Positions 2,414-39,828 of a stretch of DNA of 55,019 nt are shown one piece after another. Made by a program: the position numbers and the translations under genes. This stretch comes from a virus (taxonomy: Duplodnaviria > Caudoviricetes): positions 1 through 55,019 of the IMG/VR virus record IMGVR_UViG_3300016484_001516; one strand, 5' to 3'. Position 1 is the first letter of the stretch, and each line of letters opens with the position of its first letter. Under the pieces are notes generated by a model that was not told the DNA's origin, ran no database searches, and was given only the letters and a program-made list of their open reading frames with translations.

Positions 2414-2632
2414 ATGCAACTACAAAGAGGCGATATAATGTGGGTATGCAAGCACTTTTCAGTAAGTAGGCAATATGTCAGATTACTGATTGAAGGGCAT
2501 CGCAAGCCAACGCGGGGCAAAGGACCCGCAATAATTGAATCGCTTACGAAACTCGGAGAAAGTCGAAATGAAATTATCAGAGTTTCGAAAGCAAATATAA
2601 GAAAAAGCACAAAACGAAATGTGAATCCATGA
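2414..2632 (+). CDS. Ner/Cro-like small HTH regulator
   Basis: 72 aa, HTH-like VCKHFSVSRQYVRLLIEG; position between repressor and transposase. Confidence 0.65.
   Translation: MQLQRGDIMWVCKHFSVSRQYVRLLIEGHRKPTRGKGPAIIESLTKLGESRNEIIRVSKANIRKSTKRNVNP
2602..2626 (+). promoter_or_regulatory. Internal copy of the terminal (transposase-binding) motif at the transposase start
   Basis: AAAAAGCACAAAACGAAATGTGAAT ends 2 nt before the transposase ATG. Confidence 0.7.
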
Positions 2633-4668
2633 AAATAATTAATTCCAAACCATACCTTGAATTTCAAGACCTCGTGGAAAAGGGCATTTCGGAAAACACA
2701 ATCAAGAATGCCATTTACAAGGGGACTTGGGAATCCGTAAAAGATGAGAAGGATAAACGCAAAATTCTAATCCCCTTCGATTCTATTCCTGCGGCAACTC
2801 AAAAAAAATTAGGGGGAATGGAAGGAGTTATTGCGGAAAAGAAGATAGCAGAGATAGTTAAACGATTGGCAACTAAGGAAGAGGATATTGAATTTTTCAA
2901 GAAGTCATTGGAAAATAGAGTGATAGCGGAGGTGGATATATATGATATTGCTACAAGCTACGCCTATTCGAAAAGCCTTATTGAACTCTACGAGGAATGC
3001 AAGAAAAATCACGATTATTCGCTTCTCATGGCTTCCTCCCGCGCTGAAGCACTTGTAATGATACTGAAGGTAGCTGAGAAAAAAGGCTATTGCGGACTAC
3101 AAATAACGCAGAGAGCATTGGACAATAAGATATCCGTAATACGAAAAAAGGGCTATGAAACGCTCATTTCTCACAAATTCGGTAACCAAAACACGAGAAA
3201 AGTTGATGATAAGCTTCTCGCCATACTTGGGGAATTATACTCGAATAGCAAGTTTAATGGTGCGAAATTATGTAGGGAACTCAATCGAAGATTATCAGAG
3301 CATGGAATGGATAGTGTTTCGGTAGCTACAGTGAGGCTATACTTGAAGGACAATGATTTTCAGATGACTTACTTGGCAGACAGGGATGGGAAAAGAGCTT
3401 GGCAGAATAAGTATGAGCCTAATATTTCAAGAAAACCACCTTCAAGAGCTGGAATGTTGTGGAATATAGATGGTACGCCAATCGAAATCTACATGAAATA
3501 TCAGAGGACAGACAAAAACGGCAATAAGGTGTGGACAGCAAAAAGATTGTATGCGGTATTTGTGACTGATGCTTATTCTTGGAAAATTGTCGGGGCGGGA
3601 ATCGTGAATGGGAATGAGAACCGAGAACTTATTATGGCTGCCATGAAAGATGCTATCTATAAGGAGGGGTACAAGCCGCATCAACTTCTGTACGACAATA
3701 CACGAGCAATAGGGGAAGAAATGGAAAATTGGATGCGCGAAATTGCCACACACGCCTTCCCTGCTGCGGCAGGAAATGCAAAAACGAAAGTAATTGAGCC
3801 TACTTTTAAGCATTTTTTCGAATCACAGGCTAAGGAATGGATTAACTTTTCAGGATTAGGAATCAAGTCTAAGCAATCAAGCTCTCATATCAACGAGGAA
3901 TTTGTGCGGAAAAACCTAATGAAATTCCCTGAAGAAGACGAGGCTATTAAGCAGATTCGGACAATGATTGAATCTTGGAACAACGACCCTCTCTCGGCAG
4001 GTCCACCGAAAAACAGAAATAAGGGCGGAGTTAGCCTTTCTGCGGAAAAAGCACACGAAAAAGGATTGCGCATGAGTCCCGCAGAAGCACACAAAAATAG
4101 CTTAGATGTCCACAGAGACGCACTTGAAGTATTCTCAATGGAAAGAAAAGTAGATTTATTTTGGGTGTGGAGGCTTAATGGAGACAAAAGACAGACTTAT
4201 ACGCCCACAAATGACGGAATATCAGTCACTTTCCCGAATGGAGAAAAAAGGAAATTCGAGATATACAGAGATGATATGAGCATGATGGAACAGTATATTT
4301 CTACAATTGGTAAGTCAGTTCACATCAAGTACGACCCCACAGATTATTCTATGATTGCGGTGTACTTAGGCGACAGATACCTTACGCTCGCAATGGAAAA
4401 AGAAGATATTCCGATGGCGTTAGGCGACATGAAAGAGGGAGATGGCGAAAAACGCCAAGCAAAACAAGAGAAAAAGAAAGCCTTAGTGAAAAAATCTAAG
4501 GAAAAACGCGAAGAAGCAAAAGACCTTGTAGCGGATATTATACGCCCCGAGGATGTTCTGAAAGGCGGTTTTGGCGCGACTACTTCTACTCACCACAAGG
4601 ACAGATTGAATGAGGCTGAGGACGAAATTAAGGCAGAAATATTTGATTTAAGCACAATATATAATTGA
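2629..4668 (+). CDS. Mu-like DDE transposase (MuA-like)
   Basis: Integrase core WNIDGT, VTDAYSWKIVG, LLYDN, KTKVIEPTF; C-terminal KYDPTDYSMIAVY Mu-type domain. Confidence 0.92.
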   Translation: MKIINSKPYLEFQDLVEKGISENTIKNAIYKGTWESVKDEKDKRKILIPFDSIPAATQKKLGGMEGVIAEKKIAEIVKRLATKEEDIEFFKKSLENRVIAEVDIYDIATSYAYSKSLIELYEECKKNHDYSLLMASSRAEALVMILKVAEKKGYCGLQITQRALDNKISVIRKKGYETLISHKFGNQNTRKVDDKLLAILGELYSNSKFNGAKLCRELNRRLSEHGMDSVSVATVRLYLKDNDFQMTYLADRDGKRAWQNKYEPNISRKPPSRAGMLWNIDGTPIEIYMKYQRTDKNGNKVWTAKRLYAVFVTDAYSWKIVGAGIVNGNENRELIMAAMKDAIYKEGYKPHQLLYDNTRAIGEEMENWMREIATHAFPAAAGNAKTKVIEPTFKHFFESQAKEWINFSGLGIKSKQSSSHINEEFVRKNLMKFPEEDEAIKQIRTMIESWNNDPLSAGPPKNRNKGGVSLSAEKAHEKGLRMSPAEAHKNSLDVHRDALEVFSMERKVDLFWVWRLNGDKRQTYTPTNDGISVTFPNGEKRKFEIYRDDMSMMEQYISTIGKSVHIKYDPTDYSMIAVYLGDRYLTLAMEKEDIPMALGDMKEGDGEKRQAKQEKKKALVKKSKEKREEAKDLVADIIRPEDVLKGGFGATTSTHHKDRLNEAEDEIKAEIFDLSTIYN

Positions 4669-7383: not shown

Positions 7384-7481
7384 ATCGCATTAGCTCAATG
7401 GTAGAGCGGCTAAACGTGAAATTATTAAACCAATTTCTATTTTTCGGAAGCAGGTAGGGGGTTCGAATCCCCCATGCGATT
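7384..7481 (+). ncRNA. tRNA-like RNA with expanded, non-canonical anticodon arm
   Basis: Acceptor ATCGCAT/ATGCGAT, D-arm GCTC-AATGGTA-GAGC, T-arm GGGGG-TTCGAAT-CCCCC; anticodon arm 43 nt instead of 17. Confidence 0.75.
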
Positions 7482-15008: not shown

Positions 15009-15685
15009 TGGCATTTAGAATCAGACAAAATAGGGAAGATTTCGATATTGAGTACACCAGCTACAGAGCTGCCATTCATATCAGGAAAGAAAATGGGCAT
15101 CATACGTTTTTGAACGCATTCGAGAACCAGTATTATTATGCTCCATTAGCACTCGAAATCATTTGCGATTATGCCTCTTCTTTTGAGTTTCTCCTGCTGA
15201 TGGCGAAAAAGAAGGGCGTAAATACAGATAATTTCTACTTCTATGTATTGAAAGGGAGGGATATTGTGAGCGACACTGACCTCAGTATCAATTTCCCACT
15301 TGAAGAAGGCGAATACATAGAAGATGAATGGTCTGAATATAAAATGTTACCTGGTCATTATGCTTGGTATAAAATAGGAAAAAGAGGGCATTTATTCTAC
15401 GACAAAACCTTGTATTTCTTTCCAAAAGAGGAAAATGGTTACTGGACAGGAATAAATCATGTACAAAGTACGACCTCCGCCACCTTCCAAGCAGCCATTG
15501 CGATTGTGAAAAGATGTGAGAACGATACCCAACAAATCACTTGGGAACTATTCCTCCGCCTGTGCGGAGCTTGCAAAGAATGGCTCAACCGCCATCCGAT
15601 GTCTTATACCAATCAATGCGGTACAAGGATTTCAAATGTAAATGCCATTAACAAGTTTGTGGAGAAGTGGCAGCAAACGCACTAA
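15008..15685 (+). CDS. Hypothetical protein
   Basis: 225-aa ORF, TAATG coupling. Confidence 0.7.
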   Translation: MAFRIRQNREDFDIEYTSYRAAIHIRKENGHHTFLNAFENQYYYAPLALEIICDYASSFEFLLLMAKKKGVNTDNFYFYVLKGRDIVSDTDLSINFPLEEGEYIEDEWSEYKMLPGHYAWYKIGKRGHLFYDKTLYFFPKEENGYWTGINHVQSTTSATFQAAIAIVKRCENDTQQITWELFLRLCGACKEWLNRHPMSYTNQCGTRISNVNAINKFVEKWQQTH

Positions 15686-19648: not shown

Positions 19649-20317
19649 TTAAACGAATAAATTTACCTTATATCTAGTATTGAACTTATCTTTTATTACT
19701 TGGGATAATTTTAGTTCTCCCAATTCCGACATTTTCACTTTTATCAATCCTCCCTTTACCTCATTTACTGTTTTTCTGCCAACCTTTTTTGGCACATTAG
19801 CAACTGCATAAAAACAAAACTCCCCCGTTTCGATTAAATAATATAATTCTCTAAAATAATCGGGCATCCAATCCTCATACCTTTTGCGGTTGGCAACAAC
19901 TTTGTTTTCCCGATTTTCTATCCTTACCGCATAGCCGCAGGAAAAACCATCTTTACTATAAAAGCCCTCTTTAAATGACTGTATCTTTTTAATATCCCGT
20001 TTCGCCGTCCCTACATTTATCTCTTTAAGTATTCCCTTTACCTTGGTCGCTATTTTTATTTCGGAACAAAGAAAATATTTATTTGTTCTCATAATAGTAA
20101 TGTCGGGTTTTACCGTTACGGGTAAAAACTGTAAATTGTGACTAAGATATATTTGTAAATTTGCGTATCCATCAATAGTAGGGCGCAGGTGATGGTAAAA
20201 AGAAGCACGACAGTCTTCTTCTATTTCTATTCTATCAAGTTTGTAATCTTCTATTGTGTGCCTAAAAGCATCAATAAAAGCAACTTCTAATGTTTTTAGA
20301 TGTAGTGTTGTTTTCAT
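19649..20317 (-). CDS. Predicted PD-(D/E)XK nuclease
   Basis: EEDCRASFYHHL helix, KPDITI, SEIK, RDIKKI. Confidence 0.6.
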   Translation of the reverse strand: MKTTLHLKTLEVAFIDAFRHTIEDYKLDRIEIEEDCRASFYHHLRPTIDGYANLQIYLSHNLQFLPVTVKPDITIMRTNKYFLCSEIKIATKVKGILKEINVGTAKRDIKKIQSFKEGFYSKDGFSCGYAVRIENRENKVVANRKRYEDWMPDYFRELYYLIETGEFCFYAVANVPKKVGRKTVNEVKGGLIKVKMSELGELKLSQVIKDKFNTRYKVNLFV

Positions 20318-20504
20318 TTATGTTTGTTAATTAATCATAGGGAAATTTGTACGACCACACTTAATAAATGTTTTAGCATTTATAAAAATTATTATAAATG
20401 AATTATTAATAATTCAGAAAATAAAAAATAATGTACTAATAATCAAACTAATACGGATTAAATTTTATTTTTAATCCAACAAATGAATAACAACATACAT
20501 ATAT

Positions 20505-20540
20505 AAAAGAGGGGAGCTGCTATTGCAACTCCCCTTTTTT
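20505..20540 (-). terminator. Intrinsic terminator after the Shedu operon
   Basis: AAAAGAGGGGAG-CTGC...GCAA-CTCCCCTTTTTT. Confidence 0.65.
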
Positions 20541-20757
20541 ATATGTGGTTATTTTCACTTAAAACTTTTTGCAGTTTCTGATAGACCTCCGCCCAAGTTT
20601 TCCCGTAAGTTCCATAACTAGCTGCTTTACTATCGCTCCTATAACAAATGCCCTTTTGTTCGTCTGTCTCAACCACAATTTCAAGATAGGCTTCCTCTTG
20701 TCTTGAATACGGTTTTAGCATATTAGGCACAGACTTTAAAAATTCGCTTTTAGTCAT
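20539..20757 (-). CDS. Small hypothetical protein downstream of Shedu
   Basis: 72 aa, 12 nt after the sduA stop. Confidence 0.65.
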   Translation of the reverse strand: MTKSEFLKSVPNMLKPYSRQEEAYLEIVVETDEQKGICYRSDSKAASYGTYGKTWAEVYQKLQKVLSENNHI

Positions 20758-20769
20758 TTGGTAAAATAT

Positions 20770-22044
20770 TTATTGTTTCAAAATAGATTGTAGGCTCTCT
20801 ATCTTTTGCTGCAATTCATCAAATGTAAGTATTTCCACATCCTTACTATTGCTTCTGTATAACTCAAAAGAGTGCTGTTGGTTTTTATCCAAACCTTTCA
20901 ATGAACCGACCAAAACAACACATTTAGAGTTGAAGGATTCAAAACCTCCGCGCTTTCCTTCGCTTTTAACCTTTAAACTATAAAATTCTTTTTGAAAATT
21001 ATCCCTCTGATTTAAGACTTGAACTACGCAACCCGTCAATTCTTTACTAGCACAAAATACATCTTCTCCCCTATAAGCATTCTTTTCAATCAATTTTGTT
21101 TTATGCGTTTTTATTTCTAAAAATGAAATGTTATTGCTTAGTTTATTCTTAATGAGAAAATCATTAAACTTACCATTTTGATTATCAATGCATTTGCCAC
21201 CTACATAGGCTTCTCTTTTGAATAAAATTATCGGTTGTGCAAATATTGAAGAGAAAATCCAACTATTTTCGTTCAAAAATTCCTGCCATTGTTTTTCCAC
21301 GCTTTCGGTTTCGTTTTTCAATGCCATAAGAGATTTGTATTTTATCAATGTTTCTTGAATATATTTTGTATCAATTATCTCTTTTGTTTTTGCAAGAGCC
21401 TCTATATTTAAAAAATCCGAGCCAAGCGATAATTTTTCAAATAAACTTTTAATGGCATTTTTATCATCTTCGGAAAATTCATCTATACTATTCCCCCAAG
21501 ATGCCAATGAAACAGCCAATGTATTTGGGGTATAAATGCCTGTTTCTTTCGCAACGATAGTTGGAAATAATGAATGGAGAAGAGTTTTTGTAGTGAAAGC
21601 AATATCCGCTTTTTGCTTCTTATATACTGCACTAAATGTGTCATTTAGTAATTTTAATGCTTCTTCATTCAAATACAATACTTTATTTGCTAAATCCAAC
21701 TCGGTTTTACCCTTTCTCTCAATAAATACTTCTTCAATGTCAAAATTTTCGTTAACATAGTAACTAAATGGGTTCAACGTTTTTGTGAAGCCCCAACCAT
21801 AAGAAACAGATTTTATTACGCCAACAGGGAGGTTTTTGTTATCCTTATATCCTTTATAAACAAATTTTCTGATGGTTCTATACTTCTCGCCACCTTCATA
21901 TCCACGCGGATAATGAACAATTATACCTGTTTTTTTATGTACCTCATGGGATATTTGTTTTATGCCAGCGGCACTATCATAGTAGTAACAAACCTTTTTT
22001 CCCAATCCATCGGCTTCAATTTTTTCTCCTTTAAATTCTTCCAT
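20770..22044 (-). CDS. sduA: Shedu anti-phage nuclease (DUF4263)
   Basis: EKQWQEFLNENSWIF, REAYVGG, DFLIK, FLEIKTH, YR, ELTGCVVQVLNQR, ILTFDEL. Confidence 0.88.
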   Translation of the reverse strand: MEEFKGEKIEADGLGKKVCYYYDSAAGIKQISHEVHKKTGIIVHYPRGYEGGEKYRTIRKFVYKGYKDNKNLPVGVIKSVSYGWGFTKTLNPFSYYVNENFDIEEVFIERKGKTELDLANKVLYLNEEALKLLNDTFSAVYKKQKADIAFTTKTLLHSLFPTIVAKETGIYTPNTLAVSLASWGNSIDEFSEDDKNAIKSLFEKLSLGSDFLNIEALAKTKEIIDTKYIQETLIKYKSLMALKNETESVEKQWQEFLNENSWIFSSIFAQPIILFKREAYVGGKCIDNQNGKFNDFLIKNKLSNNISFLEIKTHKTKLIEKNAYRGEDVFCASKELTGCVVQVLNQRDNFQKEFYSLKVKSEGKRGGFESFNSKCVVLVGSLKGLDKNQQHSFELYRSNSKDVEILTFDELQQKIESLQSILKQ

Positions 22045-22469
22045 AAAATTAAATATTGTAACTTAATTCCAAGTTATTAATGACAACAAAGGTGGTCGAG
22101 GTCAACAGAGTCGTTATAGTATGCTCTTTTGACAAGAACAAAAATAAATTATTATTTAACAATATACAAATATTTATAATATATTAATTATTTTTAATAT
22201 CAAAAAATAAGAATAATGTACTAATAATCAAACTAATACGAATTAAATAAATTTCTCATTTATGCTTCATAAATAAAAGGTCATTAAATTTTTTTTATTT
22301 TTTTGTAAAATCAAAAGAAAGCATATTATATTTGTGGCGGAAGCCCCGTTACTATTTTTATCAATGGTAATAAACAACATTAAGCAATTTTTTGAAATAC
22401 ATTTAAAAATTGTTTAGGGGTTTGTTTTTATTTAAAATAATACAATATATTTGTAAATCCTTATCCATT

Positions 22470-22976
22470 ATGACAGAGAACGATATTAAAGAAGACATTT
22501 CGAGAGGTTATATCGGGCTTATAGCCAGCCGAGCAGGTTTTTATCCTGTGGAAAGTAAGAGAGATAATGGTATTGATGTTCGTTACACTAAGACTTTGCC
22601 CAGAACAGGTAGAGGTCATGTTGAACAAACTCTTTATATTTGTTTACAACTAAAAGCAACTACCGAAAAAAGAGTTTCCATTACGGATAAAGAGATAAAA
22701 TACTCGTTAGAGGCAAAAACATACAACGATTTAGTAACCACAGCAGGAGGATATCAACCAATAATTTTGATATTGTTTGTTCTTCCCGAAAATAAAGATG
22801 AGTGGGTGATAGTAAAGAATAACGAAATGGTGGTGCGGAAATGCGCTTATTGGTTTAAAATAGATGAAAACGAAGAAATCACAGATAATGATTCTGCTAA
22901 AACTATCGCTATACCCAAAATAAACTTAGTTGATTTAAATTTTTTCCCTAAAATCTATAATGCACTTCAAAACTAA
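22470..22976 (+). CDS. DUF4365-family PD-(D/E)XK nuclease
   Basis: RDNGIDV, LQLKATT, YSLEAKTYNDL, PIILILFVLP, RKCAYW; TATATTTG elements at 22327 and ~22446. Confidence 0.78.
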   Translation: MTENDIKEDISRGYIGLIASRAGFYPVESKRDNGIDVRYTKTLPRTGRGHVEQTLYICLQLKATTEKRVSITDKEIKYSLEAKTYNDLVTTAGGYQPIILILFVLPENKDEWVIVKNNEMVVRKCAYWFKIDENEEITDNDSAKTIAIPKINLVDLNFFPKIYNALQN

Positions 22977-27404: not shown

Positions 27405-27581
27405 ATGAAATTTATTGCATTCAATTTAGCCGATGATAATAACCAATTAATCGAAATAAACGCAAGTAAAATCGTAGCACTTATATTTGAGGGCGAAAGT
27501 ACCATCATAGAAACGGAAGGAAAATCATATTGCGTGGAGGGCGATATTGATGAGGTAAAACAAAAAATTAACAAGCAATAA
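27405..27581 (+). CDS. Small FlbD-like protein (58 aa, not in ORF track)
   Basis: MKFIAF...IEINASKIVAL...TIIETEGKSYCVEGDIDEVKQKI resembles the FlbD-family pattern. Confidence 0.55.
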   Translation: MKFIAFNLADDNNQLIEINASKIVALIFEGESTIIETEGKSYCVEGDIDEVKQKINKQ

Positions 27582-27582
27582 T

Positions 27583-27714
27583 ATGAGCGTAAAAAAATCA
27601 AAACGCAAAAAATTAATACCTCGCGCATGGCGCAACAAACGTGCAAAGGAGGCGCGAAAATTGTTGAAAAACAGCCGCAGAAAAGTTAGCGCGAGCGCGA
27701 TTTATTATTTTTAA
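27583..27714 (+). CDS. Small highly basic peptide (43 aa)
   Basis: MSVKKSKRKKLIPRAWRNKRAKEARKLLKNSRRKVSASAIYYF; ends at a terminator (27712-27740). Confidence 0.5.
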   Translation: MSVKKSKRKKLIPRAWRNKRAKEARKLLKNSRRKVSASAIYYF

Positions 27715-27772
27715 GCCACATTTTTGTGGCTTATTTTTTTCTTTCAAAATAAGTGAAAGAAGTTGCGAAAAG

Positions 27773-27801
27773 TCGTAACCATTGCGGTGTGTGGTCGTTA
27801 C
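27773..27801 (+). promoter_or_regulatory. ECF-like promoter copy 8
   Basis: TCGTAACCATTGCGGTGTGTGGTCGTTAC. Confidence 0.78.
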
Positions 27802-27834
27802 ATGACTATATAAACCATTAATAAACAACGTATT

Positions 27835-28173
27835 ATGAGCAACAGACTAGACAGGGACAAGGTATTCTACATTATCCGCAACGTGTTTGATGATGAGAGA
27901 ATGTCAGATGAGAAGTTCAAAAAAGTATTGGAAGGAGTCGGATTGTACAGCCCCAAATATTACAAACTTCTAAAAGAGTACAGGGTGGTAAATAAAACAG
28001 GCTTCTTAAAATCCAATTACGCTCCCTTCGCGCACCGCAATGCGGGAGATAGAAAAGCCAACATGAAAGGTGAAAAAGCCTACTATCGCGCTAAAAAGAA
28101 TGGCGAAAAGCAAAAGGCTGCGAAGCAAATCCAAGAAGACATTGAACTTTACTATGAAATGAAAGCGGTTTAA
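27835..28173 (+). CDS. Basic hypothetical protein
   Basis: 112 aa following promoter copy 8. Confidence 0.7.
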   Translation: MSNRLDRDKVFYIIRNVFDDERMSDEKFKKVLEGVGLYSPKYYKLLKEYRVVNKTGFLKSNYAPFAHRNAGDRKANMKGEKAYYRAKKNGEKQKAAKQIQEDIELYYEMKAV

Positions 28174-28281
28174 ACGGTGTTTAAGCCGCTTTTAATTTCG
28201 AATATAAATCATGTTTCCACAACAAGTGTATAACTTATTTGTTTTTTTGATAATAAACATAGTATTTTTGCAAAATAAATT

Positions 28282-28352
28282 TGCGCGGTGGAGAAGTGGT
28301 ATCTCGTGAGGCTCATAACCTTAAAACGTTGGTTCGAATCCAACCTGCGCGA
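28282..28352 (+). tRNA. tRNA-Met (CAT), initiator-like; CCA not encoded
   Basis: TGCGCGG/CTGCGCG acceptor with T1:G72, GAGA/TCTC D-stem, TGAGG-CTCATAA-CCTTA, GTTGG-TTCGAAT-CCAAC; TATTTTTG -7 element at 28263. Confidence 0.88.
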
Positions 28353-28370
28353 CAAGCAACCATAATTTTA

Positions 28371-28575
28371 GGGGCGGATGATTGAAAGACTGATGCGCAG
28401 CAGCACTTAGTGAATCCGCCCCGCTACGAAATAGCACTTTGGGCAGTTGAAGGTAAGCAGAGGAAGATACAGCATCGCTGTGGTAGGGAATCCCATTAAG
28501 TATTCCTGTTGCCTGTGTCCTACGATGAAGCTATAATAGACTGCCATACACAACCAAGCCCCCGCAAGGGGGCAT
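28371..28575 (+). ncRNA. Structured ORF-free RNA downstream of the tRNA
   Basis: GGGGCGGAT/ATCCGCCCC, GGCAGT/ACTGCC, AGGAA/TTCCT, TACAGC/GCTGTG, GCCCCC-GCAA-GGGGGC. Confidence 0.55.
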
Positions 28576-28623
28576 TTTAAACAGCAGGGTTTGCATCTTT
28601 CATATCTTTTTCTTTATTCTCGG

Positions 28624-28653
28624 ATAGGATTTCTTCGGAAATCCTATTTTTTT
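28624..28653 (+). terminator. Intrinsic terminator (UUCG loop)
   Basis: ATAGGATTTC-TTCG-GAAATCCTAT-TTTTTT. Confidence 0.85.
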
Positions 28654-28699
28654 GCTAAAAAATTTGGAATATACTATTTTTTTTAGTAAGTTTGTATTC

Positions 28700-28797
28700 T
28701 CATAAGTGATAGAACGCGCCCGATGGGAAAAGAAGGCAGCAGTGATGCAGCTTAGGGTAGCAATATCAGGTGGAAGCTCCTTCGGGAGTTTCCATTT
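28700..28797 (+). ncRNA. Candidate ~95-nt sRNA with own promoter and terminator
   Basis: TTTG (~28663) + TAAGTTTG (28687-28694) promoter; GCA-GTGA-TGC and GGTA-GCAA-TATC tetraloop hairpins; GGAAGCTCC-TTCG-GGAGTTTCC-ATTTT end. Confidence 0.55.
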
Positions 28798-28804
28798 TAA
28801 AAAT

Positions 28805-28844
28805 AAAAAAAACGGCTAAAAACATTGTTTTTAGCCGTTTTTTT
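28805..28844. terminator. Bidirectional terminator between convergent RNAs
   Basis: AAAAAAACGGCTAAAAACA/TGTTTTTAGCCGTTTTTTT. Confidence 0.85.
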
Positions 28845-28849
28845 GTTTT

Positions 28850-29066
28850 GTGCGCACCATCCTGCAAGTACGCCCAAATGAACTGTGACACGAATAGTTC
28901 GCTTGGGTAATGCTTATTGCCGCTAGTTGTGGATTTGACTGGATTTTTTTACGAGCTTCTTTGCTCAACCCTAATTTCGTGATACGCACCAGCGATAATA
29001 CCACTATTTCGGATTCAGAGTACACCACGCAATAAGTACCTCCGCAGGATAAGCACTCATTTTTAC
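28850..29066 (-). ncRNA. Candidate ~215-nt highly structured ncRNA with pseudoknot
   Basis: Minus-strand TATATTTG promoter (29073-29080), five nested helices, G-U pairs only on the minus strand, terminator at 28805-28844. Confidence 0.65.
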
Positions 29067-29175
29067 TCACCGCAAATATACGTAATATATTTGCATAAAA
29101 GCAAAATATTTTTTCAAAAAACACTTAAAATACTAATATTATTTTTATAAGTAATTGATTATAAATTATTTAGAA

Positions 29176-29212
29176 AAAAAGCACAAAACGAAATATGAAT
29201 TTTATATCTTTG
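29176..29212 (+). promoter_or_regulatory. Internal terminal-motif copy overlapping a Bacteroidota promoter
   Basis: AAAAAGCACAAAACGAAATATGAAT (24/25 identical to 2602-2626), followed by TATCTTTG at 29205-29212. Confidence 0.65.
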
Positions 29213-29249
29213 CGAAATATTTCCCATTATTAACTCAATATCACTTATT

Positions 29250-29945
29250 ATGTACGGATTTTTCGCCCTAAGTTTTGTTGTCAGCACTTGCATGGCAATA
29301 TTCGGATTAATTGCACCACAAAAAGTAATGTTTTGGAGTAATAACCCCACACGTGCTAAAGCCTTTTTAGCATATTTATTTTGTGGTTTTTTTGCGCTTG
29401 CCGTTGCACCAGACCCCCCAAAAACGAAAAACACAAAAAGTAATGACAGTATTTCCACTGATTCAGATTCTCAAAAAGGTTCTTTCTCTCGCTCACTTGA
29501 CAAAAAGAAAGATACTACTCAGGAGATAGTTGAGGAGCAAAAACAGCTGATTAAGGTAGATTCTACGCCTTACATCTACAAAAAAGCGGTGGAAATGAAT
29601 AAAAAAGGCAAATACCAAGAAGCAGTTGAATTAGCTACGCAACTAATGCAAAGTGGCAATTTTTCGGATTCAGTTCGTTTGTGCCGAGCTAAATCCTTTG
29701 CAGCAATGGGTAAGAAAGCAGATGCGGTAGCGGAAATACAATCCATTCCTAATTATAACGATATTCCCGAAGCCAAGAAAATATACAATAAGGTCAATCC
29801 ATTGCGCAAAAAACTCGTAGGTTACCATACAAAATGCTGTGATGGCAGCATCAGTTATTCAACAGGAAGAGGAACTTGCTCTCATCACAAGGGAGTTTGC
29901 GGCACAGAAGCGGAGTATAATGAAACTAGAGAATTTGGAAATTAA
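29250..29945 (+). CDS. Membrane-anchored protein with TPR-like segment and C-terminal DUF3761-like Cys/His motif
   Basis: Two N-terminal TM helices; KGKYQEAVEL...RAKSFAAMGKKADAV; CCDGSISYSTGRGTCSHHKGVC. Confidence 0.75.
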   Translation: MYGFFALSFVVSTCMAIFGLIAPQKVMFWSNNPTRAKAFLAYLFCGFFALAVAPDPPKTKNTKSNDSISTDSDSQKGSFSRSLDKKKDTTQEIVEEQKQLIKVDSTPYIYKKAVEMNKKGKYQEAVELATQLMQSGNFSDSVRLCRAKSFAAMGKKADAVAEIQSIPNYNDIPEAKKIYNKVNPLRKKLVGYHTKCCDGSISYSTGRGTCSHHKGVCGTEAEYNETREFGN

Positions 29946-30053
29946 ATTCTTTTAAAATATTAATTAATTGTTTATCAATTAATTACATTCAAGTTAAAAT
30001 ATTTTTTATGTATTTTGTTTGCTTTTTGGTAAACTGTTTATTTACTTTGCAGC

Positions 30054-30252
30054 GTCCAAAACCAAAAGAATACATAAAAAGCATTTCGAGAACCATAAGG
30101 GAAAGTTCCCTTTGTCCATAAATTTATAATGGGCGCGAAGTGTCTGACTCAAGGGTAACTCCCTTGGTGCTTTCTTTTGGGGCATTGGACGGTCAGACGC
30201 TTCGCGTCCTTTTTCTATTTTTTTTAAGTTTAAGTCCAAAAACCAAAAGAAA
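30054..30252 (+). ncRNA. C4/CI-like antisense RNA switch
   Basis: GTCCAAAA(A)CCAAAAGAA at 30054-30070 and 30234-30252; complementary TTCTTTTGG and TTGGAC inside an 18-bp stem (30131-30148/30192-30209). Confidence 0.7.
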
Positions 30253-30708
30253 ATGAGTAATTTAAGTCCGCAGGCTTTTAGCCTGCAAAAACAAGATGGG
30301 GGCAATCCGCCCAAACAAAGCCTTATCAAGATAGAACTTGAAACTATTAAGGCTTTTCCCGCAAAGAATGTAGATATTGCCTTCCTTAATCGCGCTGTTC
30401 GCTTCTTCGCAATCTGCGCCATGAAGGAAAAATTGAAGGTGGGTGTGTATGAAATTAAGCCTAATGGCGGGAAGCTGAAGCACACAAGAGCCTCTCAAAT
30501 TGAGGAAGCTGCGATTCTTGATGGCGATTACCAATCCGCAGAAGAAAAAGCTATTTTCTTCTTGATTGAAACAACGCAAAACGGAAATACTTCGTATCTG
30601 ATTGAAACAGAAACATATAGTACAGTTGCTACGCTAAATCGCACTAAGAATGAGATTCATATTCAGCCCTATATTGTAGAGCAGAAAGGAGGAGAAAGCA
30701 ATGGATAA
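30253..30708 (+). CDS. Hypothetical protein, first gene under the antisense switch
   Basis: 151 aa; ATG abuts the second target repeat. Confidence 0.7.
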   Translation: MSNLSPQAFSLQKQDGGNPPKQSLIKIELETIKAFPAKNVDIAFLNRAVRFFAICAMKEKLKVGVYEIKPNGGKLKHTRASQIEEAAILDGDYQSAEEKAIFFLIETTQNGNTSYLIETETYSTVATLNRTKNEIHIQPYIVEQKGGESNG

Positions 30709-33464: not shown

Positions 33465-33836
33465 TCAATAAGATAAGATACTGAAACTGATACAAATACA
33501 ATATTTCGGCATATTCACGCTTGCAACTACCTTATACTCAATTGTTGTGCAGTCGCCATCAACCGTTGTGAGTGAATATAACTCTGTATTTGGGTAAGTT
33601 TGGAGAAGATACTCCTTGAGTAAGTCAATTGCCCAAGCCTTACCATGCTTTTTAAGCTGCTCCCTGTGCGTTTTTGAAATCGCATTTAAAACTTCTTTAA
33701 ACGATTCTTTTTTCCAACCCTTTTGCGTAAGAACCAAGCCGAAACCATGTTCCTCATTTGTTACAGTTGGCGTTTCTTCTTTCGCGCTATAAATGATAAT
33801 TCCCGCGCACAAAATTGCTAAAAACTTGTTTTTCAT
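33465..33836 (-). CDS. Hypothetical exported/membrane protein
   Basis: N-terminal signal/TM, coupled to the portal gene. Confidence 0.55.
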   Translation of the reverse strand: MKNKFLAILCAGIIIYSAKEETPTVTNEEHGFGLVLTQKGWKKESFKEVLNAISKTHREQLKKHGKAWAIDLLKEYLLQTYPNTELYSLTTVDGDCTTIEYKVVASVNMPKYCICISFSILSY

Positions 33837-36421
33837 TATCTTGACATTAAAATTCCCACTCTATAATTGTCAATATCTTTTTCAGATACCTCTTTCATAA
33901 TCAATATTTTACCTTCAGAAACGGTCACAATTATGGGCGTTTCCTTGAAGTATTTCACGTAAGTTGTTTCCAACTTACTGCCATTTTTCACGCGATATAC
34001 CTCGCTCGCATTTGCCAACACTTTCTCAAGATTATGCGCATATTTCCACGCATTTTCTAAGGTTTTTTCAGCCTTTTTCTTCTCAAGAAAAACCTCCGTA
34101 TTATCGCCATTTGGAAGCGGAAGATTGGTCTGAAAGACAATATCGCCATTTTCATTCGCTGCCAATGATTCAATCCAAGTCTTGTAATCCACCTTACTTT
34201 GTGCGTCTGTTGCTTTTTTGGGCATTTTCGATTGCTGCTCATAGATTTTTGTACCTGTTTTCATTCCATAGTTTTTCACCGCAGAAAGTTCAGATACTTT
34301 TCTTGTCGGAAGCGACTCATTATAAGGATGCTTATCATTGAAAATGATTTTCTCCTTGCCCACATTGCCTTTCATGTAAGATGGCGTTTTGTCCGCCATT
34401 AGTGCCTGCGCGTCAGCCGAACTAATCCTATTATCCGTATTGGTGTTATCCACTTGAATCACATAGCAACGGCATTTGAATCCATTGAGCGGATAATAAT
34501 AGTCCCAAAAAGGGTCTTCAATAGGAAAAATGGCATTATGAAGGCGAGCGTGTTCTTCCCGCGTCCTGTCGTCCTGGACTGCTTTGTATTGCAAGTTTGG
34601 GAGAATATCCTTTTCAGCATTAATCTGCACCCACTTAGATGCCATTTGTGAGCTTCCGATTGCAGTATCATATTCCGCCTTCAAATAATTGACATTATAC
34701 CTGTAGCCAACAGCCGTTGCATCAGTCTTGAAGTCTTGGAATGTCCTTACATTCCCATCCGCATCAGTAAGCAAATCACGCAACTCCACCAACTCATCAT
34801 AAGTTTTGGCTGCGGAGAAAGCGAAAAGATTAGTTTGTAGGTGTTGAATCATTAATGCATCAGGCGTATTGTAATCAATATTGACCTTATAGCCTTCGGC
34901 AATACTGCCTTGCAATGCTTCCGACAATTTCAGATAGAAAGCCGTATGTAACTCATTTTCAGTAATATTGCCATTATATAAGTCGGTGAGCATTTGCTCA
35001 AATTCGCTATCTAACGTGGCATAATCAATGTTCGCAACCACAACTCTCCCCATAGAGGTTTTGTAAGCGTTCTCGCCTGTTGCTGGCTGCGGGAACGCTT
35101 CCTGAAAATTTTTCACTTTCAGGTTGGGGTTTGGCGGAGGAGGTGCTGCTTCTTCCACAATTGGGATACCGAATTTTTCTGTAATGAACTCCGCAGGAAC
35201 TTTGTAGTTGCTACTGATTACTCCTTGCACGATTGTCCACAGTTCTACAAGAGTTACCTTATCTTCGGGGTCGAACTGAAAAGCGCAGTCTTGCAGAGGA
35301 TAGCCCCAACTTACCATTAATGGCAATAATTGTGTATTGACAATGTCCTGCAAGAATTGCCTGTCGCTCTCCATTATATCGTCTGCAATTTCAAGATGCG
35401 TTTTGGATTGGGCGAATGTACCACCTGAACCATTGGCGGAGGTACTATTAATGAGTGTCCCGCCAAGAATGAGCTTATTAATCTGACCATCTTTTCGAGC
35501 AAGAAAACGCTCATACACATTGAAGGCATCTCCGCTACCTGCGCTAAGTAATTGAAAATCAGTTTGTGTTGGTAATCGCATCCACATCGCATCCGCCATG
35601 CTGTCGAGCATATAATCTATTTCGGATAATACTTTTGGATTGTTGGAAGCTGTTTTCGCCACGCGAATGGGCATTCCAAACATTTCAGCGTACTTCATCC
35701 AAAAACTTTCCATGAACTTCACGAAAATAGCCTCCTTCGATACATTTTCGAGTATTCCTAGCTCTGTGGCTTTGCCTACCTCAATAATGGTACGCTGATA
35801 TTCCTCCGCATCATAGCTAATACCTGCGGAATCCGAATCGGAAATTTTCCTCAGCACTACGCGCACGTTGGGAACGACATTTTTTCTGTCCACAACATCT
35901 GCTCCTACAATCTGTCCATCAACAATATTCAATTCAATAAGCGTGTAGCCCCAAAATAGACTTTCAAGTGCTTTTTTCAGAAATTCGTTTCTGAACCAAG
36001 GCGCGTTCAGAATTTTCGTTTTTTCCTTATCTTCCTTCCCATTCTTATCCACTACACGAAACTTAGACTTAGTTGCACGATTAAGGCGTAACTCCACTGC
36101 GGCTAATACGTCAAGATTACCAAGTGTATTTTCATAGACTTCAATGAGTGAATATCTGCGCTGGTCTTTGGGTTGTTTCGCCCAGGACACAGCTGCTTTC
36201 CACTTGTTTATATCGGGAATCGTATAAGAGTACGCTTCCCTAATAATATTAGCTAATAGAGACCCTCCACTATTACCCGCACTCCCCGACTTTGCCACAG
36301 CGTTACGTACATTATAATGATGTTTGCTGCGCTCATCTACTAAGTTTTCCCCACTATTATCTATATTAGAAAATAGTGTGTTTTTTTCGTCTGTATTGAT
36401 TGCAGGTTTTTTCTTTCTCAT
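33836..36421 (-). CDS. Portal (DUF935/Mu gp29) fused to MuF (gp30) head morphogenesis domain plus C-terminal extension
   Basis: ESLFWGYTLIEL, WMKYAEMFGMPIRVAKT, INKLILGGTL, QSKTH; then LQYKAVQDDRTREEH, DPFWDYYYPLNGFKCRC. Confidence 0.88.
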   Translation of the reverse strand: MRKKKPAINTDEKNTLFSNIDNSGENLVDERSKHHYNVRNAVAKSGSAGNSGGSLLANIIREAYSYTIPDINKWKAAVSWAKQPKDQRRYSLIEVYENTLGNLDVLAAVELRLNRATKSKFRVVDKNGKEDKEKTKILNAPWFRNEFLKKALESLFWGYTLIELNIVDGQIVGADVVDRKNVVPNVRVVLRKISDSDSAGISYDAEEYQRTIIEVGKATELGILENVSKEAIFVKFMESFWMKYAEMFGMPIRVAKTASNNPKVLSEIDYMLDSMADAMWMRLPTQTDFQLLSAGSGDAFNVYERFLARKDGQINKLILGGTLINSTSANGSGGTFAQSKTHLEIADDIMESDRQFLQDIVNTQLLPLMVSWGYPLQDCAFQFDPEDKVTLVELWTIVQGVISSNYKVPAEFITEKFGIPIVEEAAPPPPNPNLKVKNFQEAFPQPATGENAYKTSMGRVVVANIDYATLDSEFEQMLTDLYNGNITENELHTAFYLKLSEALQGSIAEGYKVNIDYNTPDALMIQHLQTNLFAFSAAKTYDELVELRDLLTDADGNVRTFQDFKTDATAVGYRYNVNYLKAEYDTAIGSSQMASKWVQINAEKDILPNLQYKAVQDDRTREEHARLHNAIFPIEDPFWDYYYPLNGFKCRCYVIQVDNTNTDNRISSADAQALMADKTPSYMKGNVGKEKIIFNDKHPYNESLPTRKVSELSAVKNYGMKTGTKIYEQQSKMPKKATDAQSKVDYKTWIESLAANENGDIVFQTNLPLPNGDNTEVFLEKKKAEKTLENAWKYAHNLEKVLANASEVYRVKNGSKLETTYVKYFKETPIIVTVSEGKILIMKEVSEKDIDNYRVGILMSR

Positions 36422-38301: not shown

Positions 38302-39828
38302 TTAGTGGTTAAGTTTAGACCTGCGTTTGACCACTTTTATGTTGTTTTTCTCCTTTGACTTTTTCGAGTATGCGATTTTATCAAGTTTTACCTTTGCGCC
38401 ATGAAGTGCATCGGGAAAGTCGTCATTCGCGCTACTGCCTTCTTCAAATGCCAATAGCTGATTTTTTGCCGTTTCCCAATCGGGTTGTTCTTTTAGTCTA
38501 TTGGAGAAGAATATTTTTCCCCTTAAGAAAAGAGGTTGCAAACTCTTAATACGGGCAGTCTTATCGCCCTTCCTATCTGTATCAGGGATAATGTCGAGCC
38601 ATACGCCTCGTTCTTCCCCCTCAAGGTCATAGTCTTCCACCAACTCATCTTGATTGAAACTACCCTCAATCCAATGCACAGGGTAGCAATCGTTGGCAGT
38701 GAACTCGAAAGCCGTATCATAATGCCAACTCGTCATTATGGGCATCTCTGCCCTTCGACAGAATACGCGCAGCAAGTCATATTCTGAACCCGTTTTTCCC
38801 AAAGCCGCAATCGCCTTCGTATCTGAAGTTTTCTTAGACTTCCAAGTGGGGTCTACATAGAAAACAACTCCATCATATTCGTGTAATGGCAATTCATCAC
38901 GAAAAACAATCTGTTCCGCCTTGAAGAATGTCCCCTCCTCAAGAGGTTCATTCATGTACTCACGCTGAAAAGCAAAAAAGCCAATTCGCTTTTTCTTTTT
39001 CGCAATCCATTCCTTTGTAATGAAATTCGCTGCGGGATTGCCTTGCTTATCCATTATGTCCACACGAATAATCTCAATATCCTTATTATGCTCCTTGAGC
39101 ATAGCTCCGATGGATATTTTCGAGAAGAAATTATTGTCGAACACGAAACGGCTGCTACCTTCGCCACCTGTTTCAATTGTACCCATCAAATCCTCCATGA
39201 GCCAATCATACATTTCCTTGCAACGGGAAGGATTTTTAGATAAGGCTTTGCTGTCAAGGTCGGTTGCGAGAATGTAATCAGGGCGAACCATGTTCTTATT
39301 AAGACCGCGAGGGCTTTGCCCCATACCCATTCCTACGAATGATACTCCATTCATAGTCGTGAACTCCAAGTCTTCCCAACTGCCGAGTTGTTTCTGCGCA
39401 CCGAAATCCGCAATGAAACGAGCGTTAGAACTAAGATTTGCGTGAATATTTCCAAGTAGTCTTTTCGCTTGCTTTTCATTGATACCAATAAGCACCATGA
39501 ATTTCATTTCGCCACGTGCCATCATCATAAGCGGGAGAATACACGAAAGCCAAGTTGTTTTCCTTGCACCGCGAAACATCATCCACCAACCGAAAAAGTC
39601 TTTATTTTTCAGTAGTTTTTTTGCCGCCTTGATAATATACTCAGGCGTTTCTTTCAAGTAAGGAAAATAATACTCTTGAAATTTCTTAGGGTCATTCAAG
39701 AGCTTTTCAATCCTCTTTTTCCTTTCAGCTTCAGATTCTTGAGGTAGCGAGCTTGTTTCTTTTTTTATCCGTTCTGTGTAGAGTGCTACCTGCTTTTTTA
39801 TTTGAATGTCGGTCATTTGCTTAATCAT
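38302..39828 (-). CDS. terL: Terminase large subunit
   Basis: FRGARKTT, GQSPRG, RPDYILATDLD, FQREYMNEP, YVDPTW, NDDFPDAL. Confidence 0.9.
   Translation of the reverse strand: MIKQMTDIQIKKQVALYTERIKKETSSLPQESEAERKKRIEKLLNDPKKFQEYYFPYLKETPEYIIKAAKKLLKNKDFFGWWMMFRGARKTTWLSCILPLMMMARGEMKFMVLIGINEKQAKRLLGNIHANLSSNARFIADFGAQKQLGSWEDLEFTTMNGVSFVGMGMGQSPRGLNKNMVRPDYILATDLDSKALSKNPSRCKEMYDWLMEDLMGTIETGGEGSSRFVFDNNFFSKISIGAMLKEHNKDIEIIRVDIMDKQGNPAANFITKEWIAKKKKRIGFFAFQREYMNEPLEEGTFFKAEQIVFRDELPLHEYDGVVFYVDPTWKSKKTSDTKAIAALGKTGSEYDLLRVFCRRAEMPIMTSWHYDTAFEFTANDCYPVHWIEGSFNQDELVEDYDLEGEERGVWLDIIPDTDRKGDKTARIKSLQPLFLRGKIFFSNRLKEQPDWETAKNQLLAFEEGSSANDDFPDALHGAKVKLDKIAYSKKSKEKNNIKVVKRRSKLNH

Follow-up and report, generated by a model that had tools for sequence, protein, structure and literature searches.

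An intergenic stretch of a Mu-like phage genome carries a compact minus-strand element that, in our judgment, has about an even chance of being a moron-type accessory unit whose payload is a non-coding RNA of ~260 nt. A promoter match and an intrinsic terminator bound the element, its outer helices are stable, the open frame that overlaps it has non-coding character, and its body is present in some close relatives of the phage and absent from others. From these features we infer transcription, approximate RNA ends, and a possible function. All positions given below refer to the window, which is the whole stretch of DNA that was analyzed (55,019 nucleotides, 38.4% GC), and the main features are collected in Table 1.

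Table 1. Positions of the candidate RNA element, its parts, and the phage features to which it is related in the text
Feature	Position	Strand	Remarks
Source record			IMG/VR virus record, whole, 55,019 bases; rated 66% complete
MuA-type transposase	2629-4668		phrog_310, E 2e-50
tRNA-Met	28282-28353		in the island
Bidirectional intrinsic terminator	28806-28844	both	18 pairs, 3-nt loop
97-codon open frame	28831-29124	minus	79 codons from GTG 29070; judged a chance frame
Replaced segment	28845-29013	both	37 other letters in X3 and X5
Body of predicted transcript	28845-29068	minus	inferred start to terminator foot
Outer closing stem, 3' strand	28852-28871	minus	pairs with 29036-29056
3' hairpin	28873-28907	minus	6+5 bp, 11-nt loop; pair probability 0.94-1.0 over 11 pairs
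Inner closing stem, 3' strand	28914-28932	minus	pairs within 29025-29035
18-codon micro-ORF, translation putative	29004-29060	minus	ATG 29060, TAG 29006-29004
Closing stem, 5' strand	29025-29056	minus	MFE 4+10+5+7+4 bp with bulges
Palindrome GCAAATATA-N5-TATATTTGC	29072-29094	both	
Promoter -7 box TATATTTG	29073-29080	minus	full match TTTG-N21-TATATTTG
Bacteroidota-type sigma-A promoter match	29073-29105	minus	-33 TTTG 29102-29105, 21-nt spacer
Portal fused to Mu-F-type head protein	33836-36421	minus	
Large terminase	38302-39828	minus	

By its gene content, the window is a Mu-like transposable myophage. Along with the transposase, portal, and terminase, it encodes a head protease, a sheath-like protein, and a tape measure protein. 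Among cultured phages, the closest portal proteins belong to phages of Flavobacterium, Winogradskyella, and Elizabethkingia, with only 25-30% identity, and a portal alignment search also found two distant prophage relatives in Bacteroidales MAGs (27% identity). Runs that contain the phage sequence are freshwater metagenomes, and none of the 17 listed is recorded as RNA. Elsewhere in the phage are genes for a protein whose C-terminal domain matches Shedu SduA (PF14082, E 1.6e-25; 20770-22044, minus strand) and for a DUF4365 protein (E 1.1e-16; 22410-22976, plus strand), and these domain matches suggest that defence-type accessory genes are present within 19-26 kb. The very AT-rich stretch at 20377-20592 (24% GC), located between minus-strand genes 19649-20317 and 20770-22044, folds far beyond the expectation for its GC content on both strands (residuals of -33 and -25 kcal/mol). 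A 98-nt tRNA match in Rfam (7384-7481, plus strand, 48.1 bits), unreported by ARAGORN, may represent a tRNA that carries an insertion or has a long arm.

The minus-strand transcription unit extends over 28806-29105 and is composed of a promoter match, a 224-nt body, and a bidirectional terminator. An earlier note, made by a reader who saw only the letters of this DNA, had described the promoter box, the palindrome that contains it, and the terminator, and had proposed that the promoter and terminator closely bound a discrete minus-strand unit. Our analysis recovered each of these features as described, and the sequence is consistent with a discrete unit. When the motif TTTG-N17-23-TAnnTTTG was searched across the window, 9 matches were found versus 4.5 expected (2 of 100 shuffles reach 9); the motif is short, and about half of the window matches are expected by chance. 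A scan for sigma-70 promoters, which is not relevant to this type of host, yielded 11 matches versus 8.4 expected. The palindrome holds one TAnnTTTG box per strand in a back-to-back, divergent arrangement, and its plus-strand half resembles the tRNA promoter region at 28252-28275.

A study of Flavobacterium psychrophilum places the TAnnTTTG box at -12 to -5 (PMC9723704), and therefore the transcript is predicted to start near 29068. The resulting RNA would run from 29068 to ~28806, or ~260 nt. The terminator, a perfect bidirectional one, has T runs on both strands and is common to the candidate and a convergent small unit on the plus strand. GC content is 44% in the body (0.444; profile 40-47%) and 10-27% in the promoter-side spacer.

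The candidate is located in a region of ~1 kb that lacks a convincing gene, between plus-strand ORFs 27835-28173 (the last on the early side) and 29250-29945. Three of the nine two-box promoter matches in the window occur within 900 nt here: one directly before tRNA-Met (28238-28270), one before the plus-strand unit, and one before the candidate. Several plus-strand terminator-like hairpins are also present. These observations agree with the earlier proposal that the candidate, the tRNA, and other RNAs constitute an island, as a cluster of small promoter-terminator units indeed adjoins the tRNA.

The convergent plus-strand unit (28663-28850) comprises a promoter match at 28663-28694, then ~100 nt, and then the shared terminator. 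Three short hairpins and a 13-bp GC-rich hairpin are predicted for its ~100 nt, and the region 28695-28850 has a fold z score of -5.97, with none of 200 shuffles as stable. Its substitutions are common to all four related sequencing runs described below. When inspected by eye, six of the eight substitutions in predicted helices keep the pair by a one-sided transition, and the two that break pairs sit at or before the predicted start. The plus-strand unit looks like a stronger RNA candidate than the minus-strand element. The most stable region near the candidate, at 30054-30250 on the plus strand, matches no Rfam family; among 1524 windows of 216 nt, the one that begins at 30097 (-81.9 kcal/mol) ranks third by how extreme its GC-adjusted value is. 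This region includes a long hairpin with a perfect stem (~30124-30207) followed by a T run, and is flanked by near-identical direct repeats of 17-18 nt at ~30054 and ~30233.

To describe the fold of the candidate, thermodynamic ensemble pair probabilities were computed for the 262-nt minus-strand transcript. All six pairings of the earlier note are present as complementary segments at the coordinates it gives, but one of them is absent from the ensemble. The arms 29044-29050/28859-28865 and 29029-29036/28913-28920 are perfect complements, with pair probabilities of 0.99-1.0 for the former helix and 0.8-0.93 for seven of the eight pairs of the latter. The GGUAC/GUACU helix is present in the MFE structure, and the hairpin arms 28873-28884/28896-28907 form 11 of 12 pairs, including one G-U, with one C.A mismatch. 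For these four helices, most pair probabilities exceed 0.9. Within the inner closing stem, 28914-28920 pairs with 29029-29035 and 28929-28932 pairs with 29025-29028. The helix missing from the ensemble is 28988-28994/28921-28927, for which the probability is 0.00 at all seven pairs and whose bases are paired elsewhere in the MFE structure.

The proposed pseudoknot, in which loop nucleotides 28889-28894 are complementary to 28976-28981, is not beyond chance, since a perfect match of at least 6 nt between the 11-nt loop and the upstream body occurs in 908 of 5000 shuffles. With the pseudoknot at chance level and the 7-bp inner helix at zero probability, the description of this element as a pseudoknotted, multi-junction, ribozyme-like RNA is unsupported. 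The repeated AATCC does occur three times as reported, but this is ordinary, as some 5-mer occurs at least three times in 1472 of 2000 shuffles. G-U pairs had also been held to fix the strand (in 28988-28994/28921-28927, for example, a single minus-strand G-U corresponds to A-C on the plus strand). This is a weak argument, because the plus strand folds about as well: the values are -64.6 kcal/mol with a z score of -2.64 for the minus strand (2 of 200 shuffles as stable) and -60.9 kcal/mol with a z score of -3.59 for the plus strand (1 of 200). Therefore, structure alone does not fix the strand, which is better assigned by the promoter and the direction of the neighboring units. Relative to the genome background, the GC-adjusted stability of the fold is equalled or exceeded in 50 of 1524 windows of 216 nt. 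The predicted fold is real on paper but only moderately unusual.

We then compared positions 27500-30500 with Logan contigs from four freshwater runs (X2 to X5). Two kinds of relative are present, both with flanks that are ~93-94% identical to the window. The candidate is kept in the X2 and X4 relatives at about 94-95% identity: one X2 contig covers 28542-29743 with 73 differences and 4 gaps, and an X4 contig spans 28839-29022, gap-free and with 9 differences. Contigs from X3 and X5 instead join 28844 to 29014 through a 37-letter insert that has a short tandem repeat. The X5 form also lacks about 29032-29060, in that its match to the window breaks off at 29031 and is followed by a diverged version of the sequence from 29061 on, which still reads TAnnTTTG on the minus strand. 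Hence X5 retains a promoter box and the terminator around an insert of ~55 nt, compared with ~207 nt in the window. The motif AATYCACAAC, which the window and the X3/X5 insert have in common but in opposite orientations, was considered and set aside, as its 18 occurrences (10.7 expected) are scattered.

The body is missing in two of the four relatives, which counts against a core, conserved system. Indels are concentrated in the region around it. A segment of 91 or 106 nt (28451-28541/56), including the hairpin at 28558-28573, is missing in all four runs; in X3 and X5, 876 other letters take the place of the body of a 231-aa membrane-like ORF (29354-30119); and the stretch 30156-30309 is replaced in X5. 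As a whole, 28.4-30.3 kb is a hot spot of mosaicism. Where the body is kept in X4, it differs at 9 of 184 nt (4.9%) versus 23 of 154 (14.9%) for the adjacent promoter and spacer (Fisher p 0.002). This rate is not different from those of the left flank (6.7%, p 0.55) and the downstream coding stretch (3.2%, p 0.27).

Searches for known families and homologues of the candidate either gave nothing or led only to distant relatives that lack it. The comparison with Rfam 15 called for by the earlier note gave no known family at gathering score, and the only Rfam matches across the window are two tRNA hits. When matches with E up to 10 were admitted for 28350-29250, the best one on the candidate was Thr_leader, which scores 30.3 bits against a gathering score of 55 and sits mostly on the terminator. 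A blastn search with 28600-29250 against 50,697 phage records gave no match. Scans of IMG/VR with the ORF and with the neighboring 231-aa protein found 0 loci each, as did scans with three DNA patterns, including the 22-nt stem arm; a scan with the portal protein found one distant locus.

The portal protein was also used to reach relatives in other collections. One relative with 81% identity is known for this protein (P0003), and a metagenome scan found eight loci at 29-50% identity that do not include the contig carrying P0003. Comparison of the island with nine loci (L003-L011) by nhmmer and blastn produced only chance matches of 13-26 nt, and tRNA and Rfam scans of the distant loci revealed no tRNA in nine of them. 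Likewise, no match to the candidate was found in two Bacteroidales MAGs with portal relatives, and 401 sampled Bacteroidota genomes returned four short hits of 20-38 nt, which are at chance level (per-genome E of 0.003-0.01). Complementarity between the candidate and phage transcripts is at chance level, amounting to 14 11-mers versus 7.1 +/- 3.9 in shuffled sequences, with 15 of 200 shuffles reaching 14.

The explanation that competes best with an RNA gene is that the element has no function of its own. It might be a decaying remnant, or filler between the divergent promoter palindrome and the shared terminator, and any minus-strand transcript would then be incidental. Several of the results above speak for this reading, including the exchange of the body for unrelated letters, the indel hot spot around it, a fold stability that reaches only the third percentile of the genome, and the empty family, homologue, and target searches. 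Against it stand the promoter match with both boxes at canonical spacing, a GC content well above that of the flanking spacer, and the X4 body, which is better kept than the spacer beside it. A 97-codon stop-free frame and a 30-bp end-to-end stem are also not typical products of free decay, although each is individually weak as an argument. On balance, we regard a functionless origin as unlikely but deserving serious consideration.

A second alternative is that the element is a small orphan gene for a Cys-rich protein of 65-79 aa that begins at GTG 29070 or at a GTG pair near 29028. The overlapping open frame ends within the terminator stem and contains six Cys, including one CxxC, and its nearest neighbors by language model are Cys-cluster proteins (0.91-0.92). 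The predicted transcript start near 29068, in turn, cuts the GTG at 29070. To evaluate coding character, we trained a three-periodic Markov model on 45 long ORFs from the window. True coding chunks of matching length (n=133) score +12.8 bits on average (sd 6.8), whereas the 79-codon version of the frame scores -16.1 bits per 240 nt, a value as low as that of none of the 133 true chunks; 10% of wrong-frame chunks (n=665) score as high or higher. The full 97-codon frame has -7.4 bits per 100 nt, the same as the mean of 68 shadow ORFs (-7.3), and small ORFs on the operon strands are mostly positive (about +1 to +10 bits per 100 nt). Furthermore, stop-free frames of at least 97 codons arise in 273 of 2000 shuffles of the 896-nt intergenic stretch.

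Protein searches lead in the same direction as the coding scores. Only noise-level matches were obtained from Pfam and PHROG, and a catalogue of 5.8 billion protein clusters contains none that shares words with the ORF, even though the portal protein and other proteins of the window are present there. A HMMER search of 1.84 billion representatives returned only two matches, both giant repeat proteins (P0007 and P0008). These were rejected as homologues because their scores are summed weak noise from 30 and 16 repeats, each contributing -4 to 11.6 bits. The Atlas recognition score of the ORF is 2236, below the value of 2300 that is reached by 91 in 100 known-family proteins. An AlphaFold2 model of the product made without an alignment was uninformative (mean pLDDT 46.5). 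The earlier note had held that translation of this ORF would argue against an RNA; judged by coding scores and protein searches, the ORF looks non-coding and is most likely a chance frame, and we consider it quite improbable that the element is instead an atypical, recently acquired small gene. The putative micro-ORF listed in Table 1 begins only 7-8 nt from the inferred transcript start.

The symmetry of the element could also be a feature of the DNA itself, such as an operator or a gyrase or architectural site. According to one report, Mu has a gyrase site at its genome center that is needed for replication (PMC6379681). The window has a MuA-type transposase, the island is located at 28.3-29.2 kb of the 55-kb record, and folding is no worse on the plus strand than on the minus strand, all of which would suit such a site. 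However, the incompleteness of the record means that the true center is not fixed, and the relatives that lack the body fit poorly with an essential site, making this reading very unlikely. Least probable of all is a miniature inverted-repeat mobile element, whose imperfect inverted arms (28852-28871 and 29036-29056) might explain both the stem and the presence/absence pattern. These arms sit close to the two ends of the segment that X3 and X5 lack. However, the element is single copy in the phage record, its 22-nt arm has no IMG/VR match, the 401 sampled Bacteroidota genomes gave only chance-level short hits in four, the arms end elsewhere than the X3/X5 deletion edges (28845; 29013 or 29031), and no target duplication is seen.

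We return to the non-coding RNA unit as our preferred reading, and propose the following model. Host sigma-A polymerase would start near 29068 at TTTG-N21-TATATTTG and stop at the 28806-28844 terminator. The ends of the RNA would pair into a long, bulged closing stem of ~30 bp, inside which lie a stable 3' hairpin and an interior that is only weakly defined. Such an RNA may act in trans as a regulator or a decoy, through its unpaired interior, its loops, or the stem. The element is probably dispensable for the core cycle of the phage, because close relatives exist without it. The host phylum does not use Shine-Dalgarno sequences and is not known to use Hfq, and few small RNAs have been described from its phages. 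If the transcript is real, it would represent a further accessory phage unit with a payload of RNA rather than protein, and the occurrence of the same slot with different inserts in close relatives would offer a natural system for studying cassette function.

A more ambitious interpretation is that the element founds a class of structured, phage-borne RNAs that has yet to be described, as a swappable cassette in the accessory island of Bacteroidota transposable phages that perhaps serves as a decoy or scaffold in conflicts of phage with host or phage with phage. If so, the shorter insert in the promoter-terminator slot of the relatives would be an alternative RNA cassette. The Shedu-type and DUF4365 genes of this phage lie a few kb from the candidate. 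We think a new class is improbable. The element had been ranked as a leading candidate for an undescribed system, and it should not be placed so high given that it is one orphan with modest structural support; it is plausibly an orphan gene for a small RNA, located in an accessory island that is hypervariable.

Among known systems, several resemble the candidate in part. Like the strong gyrase site of Mu, it has a near-central intergenic position in a transposable phage, but the Mu site is a DNA site without a transcript, and the body of the candidate is missing in close relatives. 6S RNA is similar in size and also has ends paired into a long imperfect duplex. We rejected this assignment because no 6S model match is found at E up to 10 and the predicted interior branches instead of forming one open bubble. 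Retron msr-msd RNAs have paired ends around a structured part, with a reverse transcriptase downstream. The candidate shares the pairing of its 5' and 3' ends in a long stem around a structured interior, but it was rejected as a retron RNA because no reverse transcriptase follows. Downstream are the terminator and opposite-strand units, and no minus-strand ORF within the following 600 nt (28200-28830) is longer than 48 aa.

The c4 antisense RNA clan (Rfam CL00128) is an example of regulatory small RNAs encoded by phages, and like the candidate its members are phage-borne with an intrinsic terminator. Unlike the members of this clan, the candidate is ~260 nt rather than ~80, has no c4 match at E up to 10, and has no target complementarity found among phage transcripts. 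During the searches, a c4-2 RNA (51.9 bits) was found at 15275-15358 (minus strand) of a distant Mu-like prophage in a Bacteroidales MAG (L012), where it sits a few kb from the portal gene. Therefore, such phages do carry small RNA genes, although this one is unrelated in sequence to the candidate. An sRNA-Xcc1 match (59 bits) was also found in a metagenome contig (L005, 1317-1402, plus strand).

The closest parallel is the phage moron, an accessory unit that combines a promoter, a payload, and a terminator and that some close relatives have and others lack. Classic morons carry protein genes, whereas the payload of the candidate has no coding signature. In other respects the resemblance is close: the candidate is flanked by a promoter match and a terminator of its own, it is located between operons in a hypervariable stretch, and it is present in X2 and X4 while its body is absent in X3 and X5. 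Judged by this predicted anatomy, the candidate fits the operational definition of a moron.
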